Assembly: GCA_035524935.1 (NCBI GenBank)
Contig: DATLFD010000100.1
Span: 57,152 to 121,151, forward strand
Direction: 5' to 3'
DNA from: Gammaproteobacteria bacterium
Lineage (GTDB): Bacteria; Pseudomonadota; Gammaproteobacteria; Steroidobacterales; JACDCP01
Length of the DNA: 64,000 nucleotides
Part shown: piece after piece, positions 29,701 through 52,911 of the stretch
Layout of the letters: each line of letters opens with the position of its first letter
How positions within the stretch are numbered: the first letter of the stretch is position 1
Position numbers and translations under genes: made by a program
Notes under the pieces: generated by a model
The model's database searches: none
What the model was told of the DNA's origin: nothing
The model's input: the letters and a program-made list of their open reading frames with translations, nothing else

Positions 29701-29904
29701 GAGAGCCGTTGGCATACGGCATCAGGAGGAACTTCGTTCAGGCGTCGGGGACGCTCCGCCAGTCAGTGGACAACCTCGTCGCTCGTCCGGGCAGGCCGGA
29801 CGGCACAGTCGATTTCAGCCAAGCAAGACGCGTGCCATCGCCGCGCTGCCGCCACTGTCACGGACCCGGACCGGGGTACCGCCGAGCGGGGGTGACGCGC
29901 AGCG

Positions 29905-45631: not shown

Positions 45632-45796
45632 CTACCGCTTCGCGCGGCTGGCTCTGTGCGGCATCACGAGCGCGACCGGATCGCTGGCCGGGTAGGTCGA
45701 CGCCAGCGCTTCGTCCAGCTTCCGATCCAGGGCTTCCTCAAACGAATCCCGGGTCGGGCGCCCGGCGCTCGGCTTCATCGTCTGCTTCTCGGTCAT
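45632..45796 (-). CDS. small conserved hypothetical protein (54 aa, ...DEALASTYPASDP... motif)
   Basis: Internal ATG at 45796 preceded by GAGG. The motif resembles a widespread small-protein family (from memory). It is in frame with the upstream AttH-like remnant. Confidence 0.45.
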   Translation of the reverse strand: MTEKQTMKPSAGRPTRDSFEEALDRKLDEALASTYPASDPVALVMPHRASRAKR

Positions 45797-46495
45797 GATC
45801 GTGCCTCGCAGCTGCACTGTACGCCGTGCTCGAGCTGCGGGAAAGGACGGCGGCCGGGAGCCTGGATCGCAACGGATTTGGTCGTTCCGGCGCGTCACCC
45901 CGGCGCGGTGCGGCCAGCCGTGTGCCCTACCGGCCGGCCACGTCCCCGCCGCGTACCCCGCAAGCTCGACGTAGCCCTCGCCGCGCACCGGTCCGCGGCT
46001 GCCGGCGCCGGCCACGGTCACCGCGCCTTCCCAGTAGCGCACGCTGAGCGCCATCTCCTGTGCCGCGAGTCGCGGTGTCACGTCGAGAGCCAGTCCGTGA
46101 GCGGGCAGATCGAGCCGCCAGCCGGACGGGTAGGTGATACCGGTCGCGGGACTGGTCCAGAAGTCCGTTTCCCGGACGACGACGTCTCCAGCCTCGAGGG
46201 CTTTCCGACCGCCGTCGGCCGCCACCAGCGAGCCGGCGCTGAACGGATCGCTGACGCCGTTGCTGCGGCGCAGCCGGTAAAACATGAGCTCGGTGCCATT
46301 ATCGAGCTGCAGCGCGAACCAGTCCCAACCCTCGATCCCGGCGCCGAGCGCGCTCGTGCCCCATTCGCGATCCATCCACGCCTGGCCACCGACCGTGAAG
46401 GTTTTGCCGTCGAGCCGGAGTTGCCCGGCCGCCGGCAGGCGCGTGAACGAGTAGTACCAGGATGCGTTGCCGGCTTGCGGTCCCTTGCGAATCAC
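45797..46495 (-). pseudogene. N-terminally truncated AttH-like (CrtC/lipocalin) gene lacking its own stop codon
   Basis: Begins at a GTG overlapping the permease stop, with KGPQAGNASWYYSFTRL, which as I recall is a mid-protein motif in full-length homologs. The homologous region ends near GYVELAGYA. The frame then runs on into the small ORF. Confidence 0.5.
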
Positions 46496-48999
46496 TCCTC
46501 TCGAAGGTATCGCGCCGGCGCGCCTCGTGCCAGCGAATACGCCGGGCGCAGCCCGGCCAGAAGCGCCGATGCGAGAGCCAGCGCCGCCCCCTGCCAGAGA
46601 GCGGCCGGCGCAAGCTCGAACCCCATGCTCCAGCCGAACGCACGCTCATTGATGACCCGCACCAGGATCCATGCCAGCACAACGCCGAGCGGCAACGCAA
46701 CCGCGGCGGCCGACAACCCGAGCAGCGTAGTCTGGGCAAGCACATGGTTTCGCACCTGCGCCGGTGTGAAACCGACGGCCCTGAGGATGGCGATCTCGCG
46801 CCGGCGTTCGAGCGCCAGCGCCTGCAGTGCGCTGTAAATGCCGAGCAGCGCGACGAAGCCGGCCAGGAACCGCAAAACTTCCGTCACCGTGAACGTGCGC
46901 TCGAAAATTTCCAACGACGCGGCACGGATCTCGCGACTGGACGCGAGTTGCAGACCCGCCCGTCCCGACATTGAGCTCGCAAGCTCCCTGCGCACCGCTT
47001 CTGCATCGACCCCGCGCTGCAGGTAGACGCCAAGTCCGGACAAAGCGTGGTCAGCGAACTGCGCGCGATAGGCATCCAGCGCGAGCGCGACGACGCCGTG
47101 CTCGGTCGTGTAGTCGACGAACACGCCGGCCACGGGCCATGCTCCGCCGGGCGCCGGAACCTCATCGCCGATCGCGATGCCCCGGCGGCGGGCCAGCGGC
47201 TCGGATATGAGCGCTGCTTTGCCCGCTGCGAAGCGCGCCCAGGCCGAAGCGGGATCGCCGGCAACGAAACGCGGCCGCCAGTCTGACGGGCCCGGATCGA
47301 TGGCCCATATTCGCAGCTCGCCATCGGCGACCGGCACACGTGCGCGGCGCGTCCGGCTCAAGCCCCTCACGCCCGGCACGTCGGCAAGTCGGGTTACCAG
47401 CTCGTCGTCGAGCGCGGTTTCGTGCGCCGCTTCGGCGCTCACGTAAAAATCCGCGCGCAAGGTCGTCTCGAGCCACTCGGCCACGCTGCTGCGAAAGCTC
47501 GCGATCATGATGCCGATGCCGATCACGGTCGCCACCGCCACCGCCAGCGCGGAGACGGCGACGCCGGTGCGGCTCAGGCCTGCGACCACGCTGCGCGCCG
47601 CCAGGCTGCCCGCGACGCCGAGCAACCGGCCGACTGCCTTGCCTGCGACGGCCATCATCGCGACTGTGGCGACCGGCGTGGCAAGAGCCGCGGCGATGAT
47701 TACGCAGAAAAGGCCGAAGAAGCCGAGGGCGAGCGAGTCTCCGGACAGAAAAAACGCGAACGCGGCGACGAGCGTGCTGCCGGTAGCGAGCAATACCATG
47801 CGCAATTGTCGCTTGCGCGCATGCACTTCCATGGAAGCGCGGCTCAGCACGGCGCGCGGCGGGCTTGCGGCCGCCTCCCGTGCCGGACCGTATGCCCCGA
47901 GCAGCGACACGGCGAGTCCCGGCACGAGCCCTTTGGACAGGCTCGCGGCGTTGATCCACAGCGGAGCGCCGCTCACGTCGTAATAGAGGTCCGCGATAGT
48001 GCGCGTGACGAGCGCAACCAGCCCGCTGCCCAGCAGCACGCCGAGCATAAGCCCCAGAATCGTGCCGAGCGCTCCGATCACGGCAGCTTCCGCGAACACC
48101 ACGCGAAACAGTTGCGCCCGGCTCACGCCCAGTACGCGCAGCAGGCCGAGCAGCCGGCGGCGGCGCACGACCAGAAACGCCATGGTGCTGTAGATCAGAA
48201 AGGCCCCGACCAGGAGTGCGAGCAGGGACAGCGCGGTCAGATTGGTGCGGAACGCGCGCGTCATTTCGACGAGCGCGCGATTGCGTGCAGCCGCGGGCAC
48301 CAGCTCCGCCGTGCCGAGGCCGCTCGCGGCCAGCGCTTCCGCCTGCCGCTCGTCCAGAATCAGATCGATACGGCTCAAGCTGCCCTCGACGCCAAGCAGC
48401 TCCTGTGCGGTCGCGATATCGGCGAGCACCAGGTCCTTGATGAAGGGCGCTCGCCCGCGATCGGGCGAGACGATGCCGATCACTTCGACCGGCATGCGGC
48501 GCCCGCCGATAGCCAGATCGACGGTTTCTCCGGCGGTGATCGACAGCCTGTCGGCCAGCGGGCTCGGCAGAACTACCGTGCCGGGCTCGGTGAAGAGGCG
48601 CGACAAGGGAAGGCGACCGGCTGCGCCCGGCGCCAGGAAGTCCCGGAACGATGCCTCCGCCAGCGGATCGAGACCCAGCAGGGTGACGGCCTCCCCCGGG
48701 AAATCCGCGAGTCCCACCCCCGCCTCCACGACCGGCGCGGCGCGCCGGATGCCGAGCCGCGTGCGCAGATGAACGTAGAGCGATTCGGGGACGAGGCCGG
48801 CCGTGGCAACGAGCTGGTGCGTCGCGCGGCCGGTGACGATCTCGGCGGAACGCAGGAACGCCCGCTCGGCGCTGGCATTGGCCAGATCGACACCGGTAAC
48901 GACCGCGACCCCGGCGGCGATTCCGGCGAGGGCGAGCGCGAGCTGCAAAGGATGGCGGAACAGAAAGCGCCGGCTCGAGCGAGCGACGAGGATGCTCAT
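46492..48999 (-). CDS. double-FtsX ABC transporter permease (YbbP-like, 835 aa)
   Basis: Two FtsX 4-TM modules, each with a large periplasmic loop. Start overlaps the ATPase stop. Confidence 0.85.
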   Translation of the reverse strand: MSILVARSSRRFLFRHPLQLALALAGIAAGVAVVTGVDLANASAERAFLRSAEIVTGRATHQLVATAGLVPESLYVHLRTRLGIRRAAPVVEAGVGLADFPGEAVTLLGLDPLAEASFRDFLAPGAAGRLPLSRLFTEPGTVVLPSPLADRLSITAGETVDLAIGGRRMPVEVIGIVSPDRGRAPFIKDLVLADIATAQELLGVEGSLSRIDLILDERQAEALAASGLGTAELVPAAARNRALVEMTRAFRTNLTALSLLALLVGAFLIYSTMAFLVVRRRRLLGLLRVLGVSRAQLFRVVFAEAAVIGALGTILGLMLGVLLGSGLVALVTRTIADLYYDVSGAPLWINAASLSKGLVPGLAVSLLGAYGPAREAAASPPRAVLSRASMEVHARKRQLRMVLLATGSTLVAAFAFFLSGDSLALGFFGLFCVIIAAALATPVATVAMMAVAGKAVGRLLGVAGSLAARSVVAGLSRTGVAVSALAVAVATVIGIGIMIASFRSSVAEWLETTLRADFYVSAEAAHETALDDELVTRLADVPGVRGLSRTRRARVPVADGELRIWAIDPGPSDWRPRFVAGDPASAWARFAAGKAALISEPLARRRGIAIGDEVPAPGGAWPVAGVFVDYTTEHGVVALALDAYRAQFADHALSGLGVYLQRGVDAEAVRRELASSMSGRAGLQLASSREIRAASLEIFERTFTVTEVLRFLAGFVALLGIYSALQALALERRREIAILRAVGFTPAQVRNHVLAQTTLLGLSAAAVALPLGVVLAWILVRVINERAFGWSMGFELAPAALWQGAALALASALLAGLRPAYSLARGAPARYLREE

Positions 49000-49733
49000 C
49001 GCGGATATTCCAGCAAGCGGCCGCTGCCGATGCTGAATACCCGGTCGCAGCGCGCGGCAGCCTCGTTGCTATGCGTGGCGATCAGCAGCGTGCTGCCGTA
49101 TTGGCGGCCGAGCGTTTCCAACAATTCGAGCAGTTGCGCCGCGGTTTCGGCATCCAGGTTTCCGGTCGGTTCGTCGGCCAGGATCAGGGCCGGTTGATGA
49201 ATGAGCGCGCGCGCCACGGCCAGGCGTTGCTGCTCGCCGCCGGAGAGCGTCTCGGGAAAGCTGGCCGAGCGGTCGCCGAGGCCGACCGTTTCGAGCCATT
49301 GCGCCGCCCGGTCGCAGGCGTCACCGGGTTCGACCCCGTTGAGCTCCAGCGGCAGGCGCAGATTCTCGCCGACGGTCAGCGTCGGTATGAGATTGAAGAA
49401 CTGAAAGACGAAACCGATACGTTGCCGCCTGAGCAGCGCACGGGCGGTTTCGTCGAGGCGAGCCAGGCTTGCGCCCGCAATGAGGATTTCTCCTGTGGTG
49501 GGCTCATCGAGCGCGCCGATGAGGTTGAGCAGCGTCGATTTGCCGGAACCGCTCCGCCCGACGACCGCGACGATCTCGCCCGCGCCGACGGTCATATCGA
49601 GATCGGCGAGGACGACCTGGCTTCGACCCGAGTCCTCGTAGCATTTTGTGACGCGGCGCAGCTCGACCGCCGGCGGAGCGGATGGCACGTCGCTCAGATC
49701 GGCGGCGGAGACTTCAGGGCAGCGATCCGCCAC
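48996..49733 (-). CDS. ABC transporter ATP-binding protein (YbbA/LolD-like)
   Basis: Walker [10 protein letters not shown], signature LSGGEQQR, Walker [16 protein letters not shown] start at 49733. Confidence 0.9.
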
Positions 49734-49761
49734 TCAGGTCGCGAATCGCGCCGGGTCGCCA

Positions 49762-49989
49762 TCAACCGCGCTCGAGGTCCTCGAACTGGCGCCTGAGATC
49801 GAAATTACGATCGGTGACGATTCTCTCCAGCACCCGGATCCGGTGCTCGAGATCGTCGAGGCGGCCGAGCTGCGCATCCAGCTCCGGCGAAGCCTTGCCG
49901 GCGGCCGCCCTCTGCCGGTCGCGGTGCTTGATCAGGCCGGCGACCGTGATGATGGCGACGAGGATGAGAACGAATTCGAACGGATTCAT
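49762..49989 (-). CDS. small TM protein with PspC-tail / PspB-like coiled coil (75 aa)
   Basis: N-terminal TM FVLILVAIITVAGLI. LDDLEHRIRVLERIVTDRNFDLRRQFEDLE aligns with FRDLEARMRRMERYVTSPRFRLDEEFRDLE of the upstream PspC. ATGA overlap with the upstream gene. Confidence 0.6.
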   Translation of the reverse strand: MNPFEFVLILVAIITVAGLIKHRDRQRAAAGKASPELDAQLGRLDDLEHRIRVLERIVTDRNFDLRRQFEDLERG

Positions 49990-50408
49990 GCGCGGCGGCC
50001 TCCATCAGGGCGGTCTTCGAGATCCCGGAATTCCTCGTCGAGCCTGAAGCGCGGCGAAGTGACGTAACGTTCCATCCGGCGCATGCGCGCCTCCAGGTCG
50101 CGAAATTTGTAGCGGACGTTGGACAGTGTGTCCTGCGGCGAGAAGCGCACCGATTGCGCGAATCGCTCGTCCCGCGGCGTGCGTGCCGGCTCCGCCGGCT
50201 TGCGCGGCAGGATAAAGCACAAGCCGAAGTAGATCAGGAGCACGCCGGGCATGAAGAATATCAAAGAGAGGGCGGCGATGACCCGCGTGATCGTCCGATC
50301 GAAGCCGAAGTAGTCGGCGATCCCGGCGCAGACGCCACAGATGACGCCGTTTTTCGGGTCTCGGTACATCCGCCTCGGTGTCAGCGAATCATCGTACTCG
50401 TTACGCAC
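49986..50408 (-). CDS. pspC: phage shock protein C (full-length type)
   Basis: The GTG at 50408 is preceded by GGGAGGAG. PspC domain GVCAGIADYFGFDRTITRVI plus a TM. C-terminal MERYVTSPRFRLDEEFRDL resembles the E. coli PspC tail. Confidence 0.8.
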   Translation of the reverse strand: MRNEYDDSLTPRRMYRDPKNGVICGVCAGIADYFGFDRTITRVIAALSLIFFMPGVLLIYFGLCFILPRKPAEPARTPRDERFAQSVRFSPQDTLSNVRYKFRDLEARMRRMERYVTSPRFRLDEEFRDLEDRPDGGRRA

Positions 50409-50700
50409 GCTCTCCTCCCTCCGGCCGACGGCTCTCGCGCCGCCAGAAGTTCGGCTCGTCAATCGTGCCGCGGTAGCGCAGCGGCCGGTCCTTCAACATC
50501 AGTCCGGCCATGACGTATACGACCGCCGTCGGCACCGTCCAGAAGAACAGCGAGGCGACCGCAACCGCACGCACCGCAAGCACCGGCCACTCGAAGTAAT
50601 CCGCCAGGCCGGCGCACACGCCCATGAGGATCCCGTTCTCCTGATCGCGATACAAGCGCTTCAGCAAGCCGCTGATTCGGCGCCACGTCTCAGAGCTCAT
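50401..50700 (-). CDS. PspC-domain protein lacking the C-terminal zipper (99 aa)
   Basis: Start MSSETWRR overlaps the pspB stop (ATGA). PspC domain GVCAGLADYFEWPVLAVRAV plus a TM. No YVTS-type tail. Confidence 0.7.
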   Translation of the reverse strand: MSSETWRRISGLLKRLYRDQENGILMGVCAGLADYFEWPVLAVRAVAVASLFFWTVPTAVVYVMAGLMLKDRPLRYRGTIDEPNFWRRESRRPEGGERA

Positions 50701-50915
50701 GTCTTCTTCCTCCAATCCGGGACCCGATCGTCGAGAATGGTTTCGAGCGTGTTGATGCGGCTCTCCATGCGCTGCGAGCTGTCCCATAAATCCTCGAGCA
50801 TTTTCTCGTCCTCGCTCGAAAACGAGCGCGTCGCTTTCCACTTCGTGATGTAGTGCAGAATCACGAGCAGCGGGAGGACGAGGCTGACGAAAATGATGCC
50901 AATCACTTCACCCAT
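50697..50915 (-). CDS. pspB: phage shock protein B
   Basis: 72 aa. N-terminal TM, then ...SSEDEKMLEDLWDSSQRMESRINTLETILD..., similar in layout and length to E. coli PspB. Confidence 0.8.
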   Translation of the reverse strand: MGEVIGIIFVSLVLPLLVILHYITKWKATRSFSSEDEKMLEDLWDSSQRMESRINTLETILDDRVPDWRKKT

Positions 50916-50939
50916 ATCGTTTACCGTCCGCCTGGAATT

Positions 50940-51617
50940 TTATTGTGACGCGGAAGTCTCTTTGGCAATCCTCGCCTTCAGCGCCGACAGCTCCTTCTCG
51001 ACGGACTCCTCGGACTCGAGGCTTGCAAACTGGTGCCGCAAGTCCTTCTTGAGGCCCAGGTCGTAAGCTTCCACACGCCCTTCCACGTCCTCCATCTTGC
51101 GCTCGAACTGCTCGAAGCGGACCAGCGCGTCCTCGATCTTGTAGTCGTGGATTTTCTTGCGCACCTCGAGCCTGTGATTCGCAGTTCGATGCCGTGCGAG
51201 CAATGCCTTCTGTCGCGTCTTGGCGTCGGTCAGCTTTTCTTCGAGCCGGGCAATATCGTCATTGAGCTTGTTCAAGCCCTCATCGATCGCTTCGTACTGG
51301 CTTCGCAGCGAGCTTCCGTGCTCCGTCACGCGCGATTTCTCGATGAGCGCGGACTTGGCCAGGTCATCCCGGCCTTTGCCGATCGCGAGCTCTGCCTTGC
51401 GCTGCCAGTCCTGCTCCTCGCGCTCGACGCTGCCGAGCCGCCGGTTGAGCTCTTTCTTGTCGGCGATGGCGCGCGCAGCGGTCGAGCGGACCTCGACGAG
51501 CGTGTCTTCCATCTCCTGGATCATCAGCCTGACCAGCTTCTCGGGGTCTTCGGCCTTGTCCAGAATCGAGTTGATGTTCGAATTCACGATGTCGCTGAAT
51601 CTGGTGAAAATGCCCAT
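50940..51617 (-). CDS. pspA: phage shock protein A
   Basis: Start MGIFTRFSDIVNSNINSILDKAEDPEKLVRLMIQEMEDTL, the canonical PspA/IM30 N-terminus. Coiled coil throughout. Confidence 0.9.
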   Translation of the reverse strand: MGIFTRFSDIVNSNINSILDKAEDPEKLVRLMIQEMEDTLVEVRSTAARAIADKKELNRRLGSVEREEQDWQRKAELAIGKGRDDLAKSALIEKSRVTEHGSSLRSQYEAIDEGLNKLNDDIARLEEKLTDAKTRQKALLARHRTANHRLEVRKKIHDYKIEDALVRFEQFERKMEDVEGRVEAYDLGLKKDLRHQFASLESEESVEKELSALKARIAKETSASQ

Positions 51618-51654
51618 GAGTGGATGAACCTCGTGTGAAACCTGATCCCCACTT

Positions 51655-51670
51655 AGCAGCTTCCGTGCCA
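51655..51670 (-). promoter_or_regulatory. sigma54 (-24/-12) promoter of pspA
   Basis: The minus strand reads TGGCAC-GGAAG-CTGCT. The -12 element lies about 40 nt upstream of the pspA ATG. pspF is encoded divergently. Confidence 0.7.
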
Positions 51671-51686
51671 GGTGGCGGCTGGACTC

Positions 51687-51798
51687 GTAAATTGTTGAAA
51701 TTAAAGGGGAAATCGACCAGATGCCGATCAAGCTTGGTTCGGTTGAGTTGGCCATTTAGGCTAACTTGTGGCTAATTCAACCGATATTTGGCTAGAAT
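51687..51798. promoter_or_regulatory. psp divergent control region: IHF-like AT-rich site, three GGCTA(A/G) repeats, pspF -10
   Basis: AAATTGTTGAAATTAAA (about 51689-51705). GGCTAA/GGCTAA/GGCTAG at about 51759, 51770 and 51790. TAGAAT at 51793-51798, only 6 nt before the pspF ATG. Confidence 0.35.
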
Positions 51799-51804
51799 GC
51801 GCAG

Positions 51805-52911
51805 ATGGCCGCACTGCATTCAGAAGGCGTCCCGGTCATCGGCCAGGCGCCCGCCTTCCTCGAGACGCTCGAGCACGTCTCCCGGGCCGCCGCGCTCGCC
51901 AAGCCGGTGCTCGTTATCGGCGAACGGGGCACCGGCAAGGAGCTGATCGCGGCGCGCCTGCACTACCTGTCGCCCCGCTGGGAGCAACCGCTGGTCAAGC
52001 TCAATTGCGCCGCGCTCACCGAAAGCATTCTCGAATCGGAGCTTTTCGGCCATGCCGCAGGTGCATTCACGGGCGCTGTCCGCGAGCACGTCGGGCGGTT
52101 CGAGCGTGCCGATGGCGGCACGCTCATACTCGACGAGCTCGCCACTATCCCGTTGCGCACCCAGGAGAAGATCCTGCGTGTCATCGAGTACGGCGAGTTC
52201 GAGCGCGTCGGCGGCAGCAAGACCGTGCACGCCGACGTGCGCATCGTCGGCTCGACGAACGCACATTTGCCGGCCCTCGCGCGCGATGGCCGCTTCCGCG
52301 AGGACCTGCTCGATCGCCTGGCATTCGACGTCATCGTGGTTCCGCCGCTGCGCGCCCGGCGCGATGACATCCTGGAGCTGGCGCATCACTTCGCCGTTAA
52401 TATCACCAGCGAGCTGCACCGCGAATACTTCCCGGGCTTCACGCTGCGCGCAGCCTCTACGCTGCTGTCCTACTCCTGGCCCGGCAACGTTCGCGAGCTG
52501 AAGAATGCCGTTGAACGATCGGTTTACCGTTCCGCGAAGCCCGGGGCACGAATCGACCGGATCCATTTCGACCCGTTCGATTCTCCGTTCATGCCGCCCG
52601 CGCCAGTAAAGCCCGCGGAGTCGTCGCCGCCTGCGCGCCAGGGATCGGCGCAAGCGGAGCCCGAGGAGGCGCCGGCGGAAGAGGAGCCTCTGTTACCCTG
52701 CAAGCTCAAGGAAGAGCTCGCGGTCTTCGAGGCCGAATATGTGCTGCATGCGCTGGAGCAGTGCCGTTTCAATCAACGGCGCGCGGCGCAGGCCCTCGGC
52801 CTGACCTATCATCAATTGCGCGCCTGCCTGCGCCGGCACGACCTGGCCGGCAAGGCTGCGGCGCCGGAGCAGGCCGCAGACGCTGAATCGGCCGCGCGCC
52901 GCCGCCGGTGA
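51805..52911 (+). CDS. pspF: psp operon transcriptional activator PspF (sigma54 bEBP without a receiver domain)
   Basis: Collinear with E. coli PspF as I recall it ([50 protein letters not shown]-terminal HTH LGLTYHQLRACL). Confidence 0.9.
   Translation: MAALHSEGVPVIGQAPAFLETLEHVSRAAALAKPVLVIGERGTGKELIAARLHYLSPRWEQPLVKLNCAALTESILESELFGHAAGAFTGAVREHVGRFERADGGTLILDELATIPLRTQEKILRVIEYGEFERVGGSKTVHADVRIVGSTNAHLPALARDGRFREDLLDRLAFDVIVVPPLRARRDDILELAHHFAVNITSELHREYFPGFTLRAASTLLSYSWPGNVRELKNAVERSVYRSAKPGARIDRIHFDPFDSPFMPPAPVKPAESSPPARQGSAQAEPEEAPAEEEPLLPCKLKEELAVFEAEYVLHALEQCRFNQRRAAQALGLTYHQLRACLRRHDLAGKAAAPEQAADAESAARRRR

Follow-up and report, generated by a model that had tools for sequence, protein, structure and literature searches.

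Within a 64,000-nt stretch of a Gammaproteobacteria bacterium genome (assembly GCA_035524935.1, contig DATLFD010000100.1, positions 57,152 to 121,151 of the forward strand; hereafter "the window", in whose numbering all coordinates of this stretch are given), we analysed a membrane-stress (phage shock protein, psp) operon that carries two genes in addition to pspA, pspB and pspC. One of them encodes a PspC paralogue without the C-terminal tail, and the other a protein of 75 amino acids (aa), termed X here, which consists of a transmembrane (TM) helix and a coiled coil, resembles the PspC tail and belongs to the PspB superfamily. The genes of the locus and its putative promoter element are as follows:

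51805..52911, plus strand: pspF, divergent from pspA
51656..51670, minus strand: sigma-54 -24/-12-like element TGGCACGGAAGCTGC, 38 nt upstream of the pspA ATG (51617)
50940..51617, minus strand: pspA, 225 aa, starting with MGIFTRF
50697..50915, minus strand: pspB, 72 aa
50401..50700, minus strand: gene of the tail-less PspC paralogue, 99 aa
49986..50408, minus strand: full-length pspC, 140 aa, GTG start
49762..49989, minus strand: pspX, the gene of the 75-aa protein X

The products of pspA (PF04012, 146.5 bits; TIGR02977, 296.3 bits versus a cutoff of 242.95), pspB (PF06667, 85.5 bits; TIGR02976, 76.8 versus 51.7) and the full-length pspC (TIGR02978, 119.1 bits versus 104, with a match spanning model positions 2-121 of 121) each score above the cutoff of their own NCBIfam equivalog model, and the three genes lie in one operon. 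The divergently oriented pspF (TIGR02974 phageshock_pspF, 498.5 bits versus 443.55) encodes a sigma-54 enhancer-binding activator and is placed identically in related loci. The element TGGCACGGAAGCTGC was found by a pattern search and shows one mismatch to TGGCAC-N5-TTGC; since the number of matches in the whole window equals the chance expectation, its position alone supports it as a sigma-54-like element. An initial annotation of this DNA had described three translationally coupled genes after pspA and pspB, and both their positions on the minus strand and the overlaps of their stop and start codons were confirmed: the pspB stop and the start of the tail-less gene overlap as ATGA, the tail-less gene and the full-length pspC share 8 nt (GTGCGTAA), and the full-length pspC and pspX overlap again as ATGA. 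The proposed 140-aa PspC starting from GTG at 50408 behind a strong ribosome-binding site likewise stands, with GGGAGGAG located at 50419-50412 and its GGAGG core 5 nt from the GTG. We conclude that the locus is a genuine PspF/sigma-54-type psp operon with the order pspA-pspB-pspC'(tail-less)-pspC-pspX; no further psp-like open reading frames (ORFs) are present in the 64-kb window.

In the 99-aa protein the PspC domain is recognized well above the gathering score of PF04024 (63.7 bits versus 25; positions 1-56 of 58), but the score falls below the cutoff of the PspC equivalog model (TIGR02978, 76.4 bits versus 104), which is matched only at positions 2-81 of 121. The protein comprises the PspC domain, a TM helix and a post-TM E..FW..R motif and is devoid of the PspB-like tail, in agreement with its earlier description as a PspC domain plus TM segment lacking the zipper. 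The 99-aa protein and the corresponding tail-less proteins of related loci ("heads") keep the GVCAG.ADYF signature (GVCAG..DYF) together with E..FW..R and end about 10 residues after the latter motif, whereas full PspCs continue with SP..TL...R.RFR.LE.R...(L/M)E.YVTS. The head and the full PspC of the window are 38% identical over 60 aa (BLASTP, E 2e-15), or 33% identical in the alignment used for the tree. A neighbour-joining tree of 130 PspC N-terminal domains, 51 from head-only proteins and 79 from full PspCs, unites 50 of the 51 heads in one clade with none of the 79 full PspCs in it; the lone exception is encoded on a 2.2-kb contig. Mean identities amount to 56% between heads, 40% between full PspCs and 31% across the two types, whose subtrees branch in parallel; operons devoid of pspB (see below) are nested as a group within the clade of heads. 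A homologue search seeded with the 99-aa protein (using a word index) gave only 12 matches, so the survey of heads was based on 94 loci; among the loci surveyed, the head-only paralogue is limited to one gammaproteobacterial clade. The 99-aa gene is an old PspC paralogue that has lost the C-terminal PspB-like tail. In one metagenome-assembled genome (MAG) of Woeseiaceae (L078, 3547-3922), the full pspC is itself broken into a head part and a tail part, encoded by overlapping ORFs that differ in frame. This is probably due to a frameshift or an assembly error and could alternatively be a genuine recent split.

All five psp genes are under purifying selection. In comparisons with the orthologues from two MAGs (L001 and L004), the ratio of nonsynonymous to synonymous substitution rates (dN/dS) is 0.14-0.27 for the tail-less pspC, 0.13-0.27 for pspX, 0.10-0.13 for the full pspC and below 0.1 for pspA and pspB. 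The five-gene order is found with similar gene lengths in independent assemblies, where X is 83%, 69% and ~51% identical to that of the window, and the proteins of matching operons in independent MAGs show 45-90% identity; the L004 orthologue of pspC is likewise called at 140 aa. Synteny with two MAGs of soil and sediment gammaproteobacteria (GCA_050740235.1 and GCA_965610025.1) comprises, in this order, a Na+/H+ exchanger-TrkA gene, pspF, the psp operon, an ATP-binding cassette (ABC) ATPase, a double MacB/FtsX permease, an AttH/lipocalin protein and a PAS-GGDEF-EAL protein.

None of the curated Pfam and NCBIfam models captures X. The PspB models score 15.2 bits (PF06667, cutoff 25.6) and 25.4 bits (TIGR02976, cutoff 51.7; positions 11-74 of 75), and the PspC models reach 24 bits, also below cutoff, with TIGR02978 matched at positions 84-121; NF007973 (enterobacterial PspC) aligns residues 6-72 of X to positions 50-119 of 119, i.e. 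to the TM helix and the tail. Annotation of the three ORFs with profile hidden Markov models (HMMs) thus yields the PspC domain for the 99-aa and 140-aa proteins and, for the 75-aa protein, scores below all cutoffs with remote homology to the PspC tail and PspB. The concern that homology searches might assign the two shorter proteins to unrelated families was not borne out, both being related to the PspC/PspB families (by PF04024 and by hhalign, respectively). According to hydropathy and sequence, X is composed of a short N-terminus, a TM helix at about residues 4-20, the stretch KHRDRQR and a heptad coiled coil with the motif RIRVLERIVTD; the heptad series read from the sequence (L37, L44, I51, V58, L65, L72) is perfect. 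PspB-like signals predict that the N-terminus is outside and the coiled coil cytoplasmic. In the AlphaFold2 model of the monomer, which is of moderate confidence (predicted local distance difference test, pLDDT, 68), a helix at residues 3-30 is followed by a short linker and a long helix at residues 36-74. When the PDB was searched with a profile of the X family, all matches were to generic coiled coils (prefoldin, HA2, ZapA; E>=0.0065), and solved structures of PspB or PspC were not among them.

A database search returned 185 homologues of X with lengths of 71-100 aa, almost all of them labelled "hypothetical". The few other labels (FtsB, FliO, YlxW/UPF0749, phage shock protein B; e.g. P0025, P0054, P0074, P0080) are inconsistent, which points to a family without a curated model, and some members reach the Pfam PspB model or carry the JGI name PspB. 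In the family alignment, the short N-terminus is conserved (often as MNPFE), a single TM helix is present, and the motif (E/D)RIRVLERIVTD, also met as ERIRVLERIVT(D/E), is nearly invariant. We considered MNPFE as an invariant of the whole family and rejected it, since members from Woeseiaceae start with MNT(L/M)FY. An exhaustive profile search identified 807 representatives of 50%-identity clusters at E<=1e-10 and 2,981 at E<=1e-3, and relatives of X occur in the genomes of at least 503 species (503 of 600 candidate stretches from a species-level genome collection). The carriers span alpha- and gammaproteobacteria and include Woeseiaceae, Sedimenticola, Thioalkalivibrio, Chromatiales, Gynuella, Hydrocarboniphaga, Sphingomonas, Sphingomicrobium and Sphingobium. 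The family of X is widespread and unnamed, and consists of small bitopic membrane proteins. In several sequences (P0133, 151 aa; P0143, 148 aa; P0190; P0242; P0278, 162 aa), two X-like stretches are found in one polypeptide, and these natural tandem fusions hint that X units may pair with each other.

The relationship of X to the PspC tail and to PspB was analysed with hhalign, using local alignments of 85 X proteins, 56 PspBs and 79 PspC tails from the surveyed loci. X matched the PspC tail with a probability of 96.7% (E 4.2e-10) over 45 columns, which correspond to the whole tail including the segment dL.rei..L after VT(D/S), and it matched PspB with 95.2% (E 2.4e-8) over 54 columns that comprise the juxtamembrane region and the helix, while PspB and the PspC tail matched each other with only 21% (E 1e-3, 25 columns). 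Pairwise BLASTP aligned X with the tail of the neighbouring PspC (40% identity over 53 residues, E 5e-7) and gave no alignment with the operon's own PspB. The features (L/M)E.(I/Y)VT(D/S) and the leucine-zipper heptads of the tail are matched in X, and the similarity extends over the whole tail. The earlier view of the 75-aa protein as a TM segment plus a coiled coil matching the PspC tail is hence borne out, and the pattern DLE-R-R--ER-VT---F-L---F-DLE reported to be shared by the two proteins is exact. By these profile comparisons, the X family is homologous to the PspC tail, its closest relative, and more distantly to PspB. With the architecture of PspB and a helix most like that of the PspC tail, X bridges the two, and the profile results agree with Ravi et al. 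(2024), who describe the PspC tail as a divergent PspB domain that had not been recognised before and denote the E. coli protein as "PspC+PspB" (PMC11237479).

To survey operon architectures, ORFs were called in the 94 loci and the window and classified with local HMMs. Upon iteration, the models for PspB, PspC tails and X became one after a single round, and the first-round models were therefore rebuilt and each ORF was assigned by its best score. The resulting 80 species-level loci had been chosen for having X, so the counts reveal the associations of X and not the frequency of operon types. Psp-operon genes are found in 76 of the 80 loci and a psp operon containing pspA in 74. The initial annotation had suggested a search for the head/full/tail triplet in relatives, and head and full PspC indeed both accompany X in 47 of the 80. 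The architectures are:

pspA-head-full-X: 26 loci, mostly Woeseiaceae; pspB is not found in the ~8-kb locus, and the interval from pspA to the head is too short for it
pspA-pspB-head-full-X (the type of the window): 20 loci, four of them with a second X-like gene
pspA-pspB-full-X(n), without head: 28 loci, including Sedimenticola, Thiolapillus and sphingomonads; a single intact PspC
X without psp neighbours: 4 loci, e.g. that of Gynuella (L048)
short contigs without pspA: 2 loci, L023 (head-X) and L027 (pspB-head-full-X)

The five-gene layout is conserved in a gammaproteobacterial clade of Woeseiaceae and relatives, many of them uncultured bacteria from sediment and soil. In the 26 operons of the first type (L030, L031, L034, L035, L039 and 21 others), no pspB was found within ~4 kb. 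X precedes pspB in Sedimenticola and Thiolapillus (A-X-B-C or A-X-C-B), and sphingomonads possess 2-5 tandem X-like genes (L008, 3087-4512; L086, 3020-4521; L085 from Sphingomonas colocasiae JCM 31229, 3329-4255), whose products have a TM helix and a helix of the (R/K)(I/V).VLE(R/K)I.TD type, with the MNPFE N-terminus in one protein per operon. The orphan X-like gene of Gynuella sp. (L048, 3980-4219) is located beside a gene for a response regulator with GGDEF/EAL domains; its other neighbour resembles, judging by eye, a gene for a pseudouridine-5'-phosphate glycosidase.

E. coli has one PspC, and it is debated how PspB and PspC switch PspA from PspF, what topology PspC adopts, which partners its domains bind and what purpose PspB serves. 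An E. coli fragment consisting of the TM helix and the tail (PspC40-119) binds PspB via the TM region and PspA via the leucine zipper in the tail, and induces psp without stress if co-expressed with PspB; tail-less fragments of E. coli PspC bind PspB and not PspA (PMC3068692). Against this background, the interpretation we favour, with moderate confidence, is that of a psp operon with an old tail-less PspC and a PspC-tail homologue from the X family, in which X acts as an extra PspA dock and the head as a PspA-blind modulator. X and both forms of PspC would assemble with PspB in the inner membrane. X would contribute a PspC-tail-like coiled coil that is permanently cytoplasmic and could bind PspA as PspC40-119 does in E. 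coli; since X would be made from a PspF-dependent operon, more sites for docking and sequestering PspA would be available upon induction, and the response might be amplified or sustained. The tail-less PspC would keep the sensing and PspB-binding half and, being unable to bind PspA, may tune or buffer the sensor. In the Woeseiaceae operons without pspB, where it is the sole PspB-like protein, X probably also covers the role of PspB.

Several points weigh against this interpretation. The PspA-binding role of X is proposed by analogy from a tail that is only 37-40% identical, and the AlphaFold2 model described above is a monomer of moderate confidence. It is just as conceivable that X, in the manner of PspB, silences the PspC tail, which would make it a damper and not an amplifier of the response. 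X-like genes exist outside psp operons (L048, L055 and L064 have no psp genes within ~4 kb), genomes with apparently PspB-less operons could have a pspB at another place, and a set of 80 loci selected by X gives no frequency of the head-only PspC among psp operons in general.

The strongest alternative, which we regard as possible but unlikely, takes up the third of these points: X would be a functional second PspB, which silences the C-terminal domain of PspC or replaces PspB and thereby dampens or gates the response, and it would not be a PspA-binding module. As in PspB, the TM helix of X is N-terminal and is followed by a basic cluster and then by a cytoplasmic helix, the predicted topology being the same, and the profile match between the two proteins encompasses the juxtamembrane part. 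The assignment of some family members to PspB by Pfam or JGI and the "PspB duplicates" of Ravi et al. (2024) point in the same direction, as do the 26 operons that retain X without pspB; moreover, according to a title cited in PMC5596341, PspB and PspC interact through their cytoplasmic domains to silence the response. However, the helix of X continues after VT(D/S) with the dL.rei..L segment of the PspC tail, which is absent from PspB (the latter ends with P.WR), pairwise BLASTP detects no similarity between X and PspB, and most operons keep PspB in addition to X, which argues against simple redundancy. X may also be both a PspA dock and a PspB-like gate.

A bolder version, which we consider doubtful, would extend the docking interpretation to the entire sensor: a modular kit with separate head and tail subunits of tunable stoichiometry, in which X would be an inducible PspA dock with positive feedback, the head would serve as a PspA-blind decoy and X could replace PspB. 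If this were true, PspB, the PspC tail and X would be interchangeable members of one family of coiled-coil adaptors, and these operons would provide a natural test of the disputed topology of PspC and of the partner-switch models.

Concerning the origin of the two additional genes, the initial annotation had invoked module duplication and fission. The duplication stands, as the head looks like a copy of pspC minus the tail; fission as a source of X is not supported, since X has a broader phyletic range than the head. A scenario in which pspC was recently duplicated in this lineage and then split, with the 99-aa and 75-aa proteins as the two halves of one former PspC, would account for the end of the head exactly where a tail would start, for the alignment of NF007973 to the TM helix and tail of X, and for the BLASTP similarity of X to the neighbouring PspC tail and not to PspB; all the same, we regard it as improbable. 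X accompanies a single intact PspC without any head in 28 of the 80 species loci, alphaproteobacterial ones included, it occurs in Sedimenticola and sphingomonads, where the tail-less PspC is absent, and it precedes pspB in Sedimenticola and Thiolapillus, whereas the heads are confined to one gammaproteobacterial clade. In the operon, the head and X are not adjacent, as the full pspC lies between them. Furthermore, the X family model assigns 107 bits to X of the window and 66-107 bits to X proteins but only 23 bits to the PspC tail of the window, which is hardly closer to the model than the tails from distant lineages (16-20 bits). We conclude that X is not a product of local fission of pspC, that the X family is older and wider than the head-only paralogue, and that a recent, local fission event is largely refuted by the phyletic pattern. 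The simplest history starts from an A-B-C-X ancestor in which pspC was duplicated once and the upstream copy lost its tail, with a later loss of pspB in a subclade of Woeseiaceae. X may have been derived in the distant past from the C-terminal half of PspC, or conversely the PspC tail from a fused X-like gene, both histories being compatible with the 45 alignable residues.

A lack of function in the two additional ORFs, which would then be an assembly artefact or a tandem copy of pspC in decay plus an ORF arisen by chance in GC-rich DNA, is hardly credible: small chance ORFs are frequent in high-GC sequences and many overlapping ORFs are listed for the window, but dN/dS of 0.13-0.27, the preservation of order, length and start/stop overlaps across dozens of independent assemblies, the significant domain matches of the extra ORFs and the 807 clusters with invariant motifs in the X family rule these explanations out as far as sequence data reach.

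Compared with the enterobacterial pspF/pspABC(DE) systems of E. coli and Yersinia enterocolitica, the operon shares the divergent pspF, PspA, PspB and the full PspC, and the A-B-C order, along with a putative sigma-54-type element; it differs in the tail-less PspC inserted between pspB and pspC, in X after pspC, and in the lack of PspD, PspE and PspG. The "PspB duplicates" listed in the psp operon of Erythrobacter litoralis, a catalogue entry without an analysis of the family or its function (PMC11237479), are, like X, small TM-plus-helix proteins encoded 3' of pspC, and the arrays of sphingomonads match them; the window has a single X together with a tail-less PspC, the latter being absent from the sphingomonad operons. 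The engineered PspC40-119 fragment (Jovanovic et al. 2010, PMC3068692) is a counterpart of X in layout, and the 99-aa protein corresponds to a zipper-less PspC. Unlike these E. coli fragments, the window's versions occur naturally as separate, conserved genes beside that of an intact PspC; the likeness of X to PspC40-119 is one of layout, and the identity of only 37-40% refers to the PspC tail of its own genome. Stand-alone PF04024 proteins of Firmicutes, Actinobacteria and other bacteria share with the 99-aa protein a PspC domain without the PspB-like tail. In contrast to them, the 99-aa gene resides inside a classical pspFABC locus directly upstream of the full pspC, and its product can still be recognised, at positions 2-81, as belonging to the proteobacterial TIGR02978 type.

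The homology of the PspC tail to PspB and the existence of PspB-like duplicates have already been published (PMC11237479), as has the common presence of multiple PspC paralogues or domains per genome (PMC9239133). Our literature search found neither a tandem of tail-less and full PspC in a pspFABC operon, alone or combined with X, nor the PspB-less A-head-full-X form, a delineation of the X family or an experiment on these proteins; queries for pspC2, pspB2 and PspB-like returned only the pneumococcal PspC and unrelated papers. The text of PMC11237479 and the supplement examined contain no description of the triplet of tail-less, full and tail-like proteins or of its PspB-less form. The statement in the initial annotation that the arrangement is uncharacterised thus holds for the triplet and for experiments on it, and has to be qualified for its components, as the divergent PspB domain in the tail and the PspB duplicates had been recorded. 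The operon is an interesting variant and not a new type of system. Its value lies in the occurrence of the PspC head and a tail-like module as separate conserved genes beside an intact PspC, with a nested clade that drops PspB and keeps X; these proteins are ready-made separation-of-function variants for the partner-switch model. In addition, a sizeable family of small membrane proteins without a Pfam or NCBIfam model has been defined. The practical gain is modest: psp operons of Woeseiaceae, Sedimenticola and sphingomonads can be annotated better, and there is a hypothesis to test.

Downstream of pspX, and on the same strand, Pfam matches identify three further genes:

48996-49733, minus strand: ABC ATPase
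46492-48999, minus strand: double MacB_PCD/FtsX permease
45632-46495, minus strand: AttH/lipocalin protein

The gap between pspX and the ABC ATPase gene is at most 28 nt (taking the GTG start of the longest ORF, at 49733), and a scan for promoters and terminators in the region 48800-52000 found no site, including none between pspX and the ABC genes. About 15 related loci, all of the A-B-head-full-X type, likewise have the trio behind X, and its co-transcription with the psp genes is possible in this subclade. We considered these proteins as members of the system and rejected this assignment; as the synteny is limited to one subclade, they are listed here as neighbours. An Rfam scan of the window gave 0 matches. 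Far from the psp locus, at 29823-29837 on the minus strand, the window contains a perfect match to the sigma-54 consensus TGGCAC-N5-TTGC (TGGCACGCGTCTTGC).

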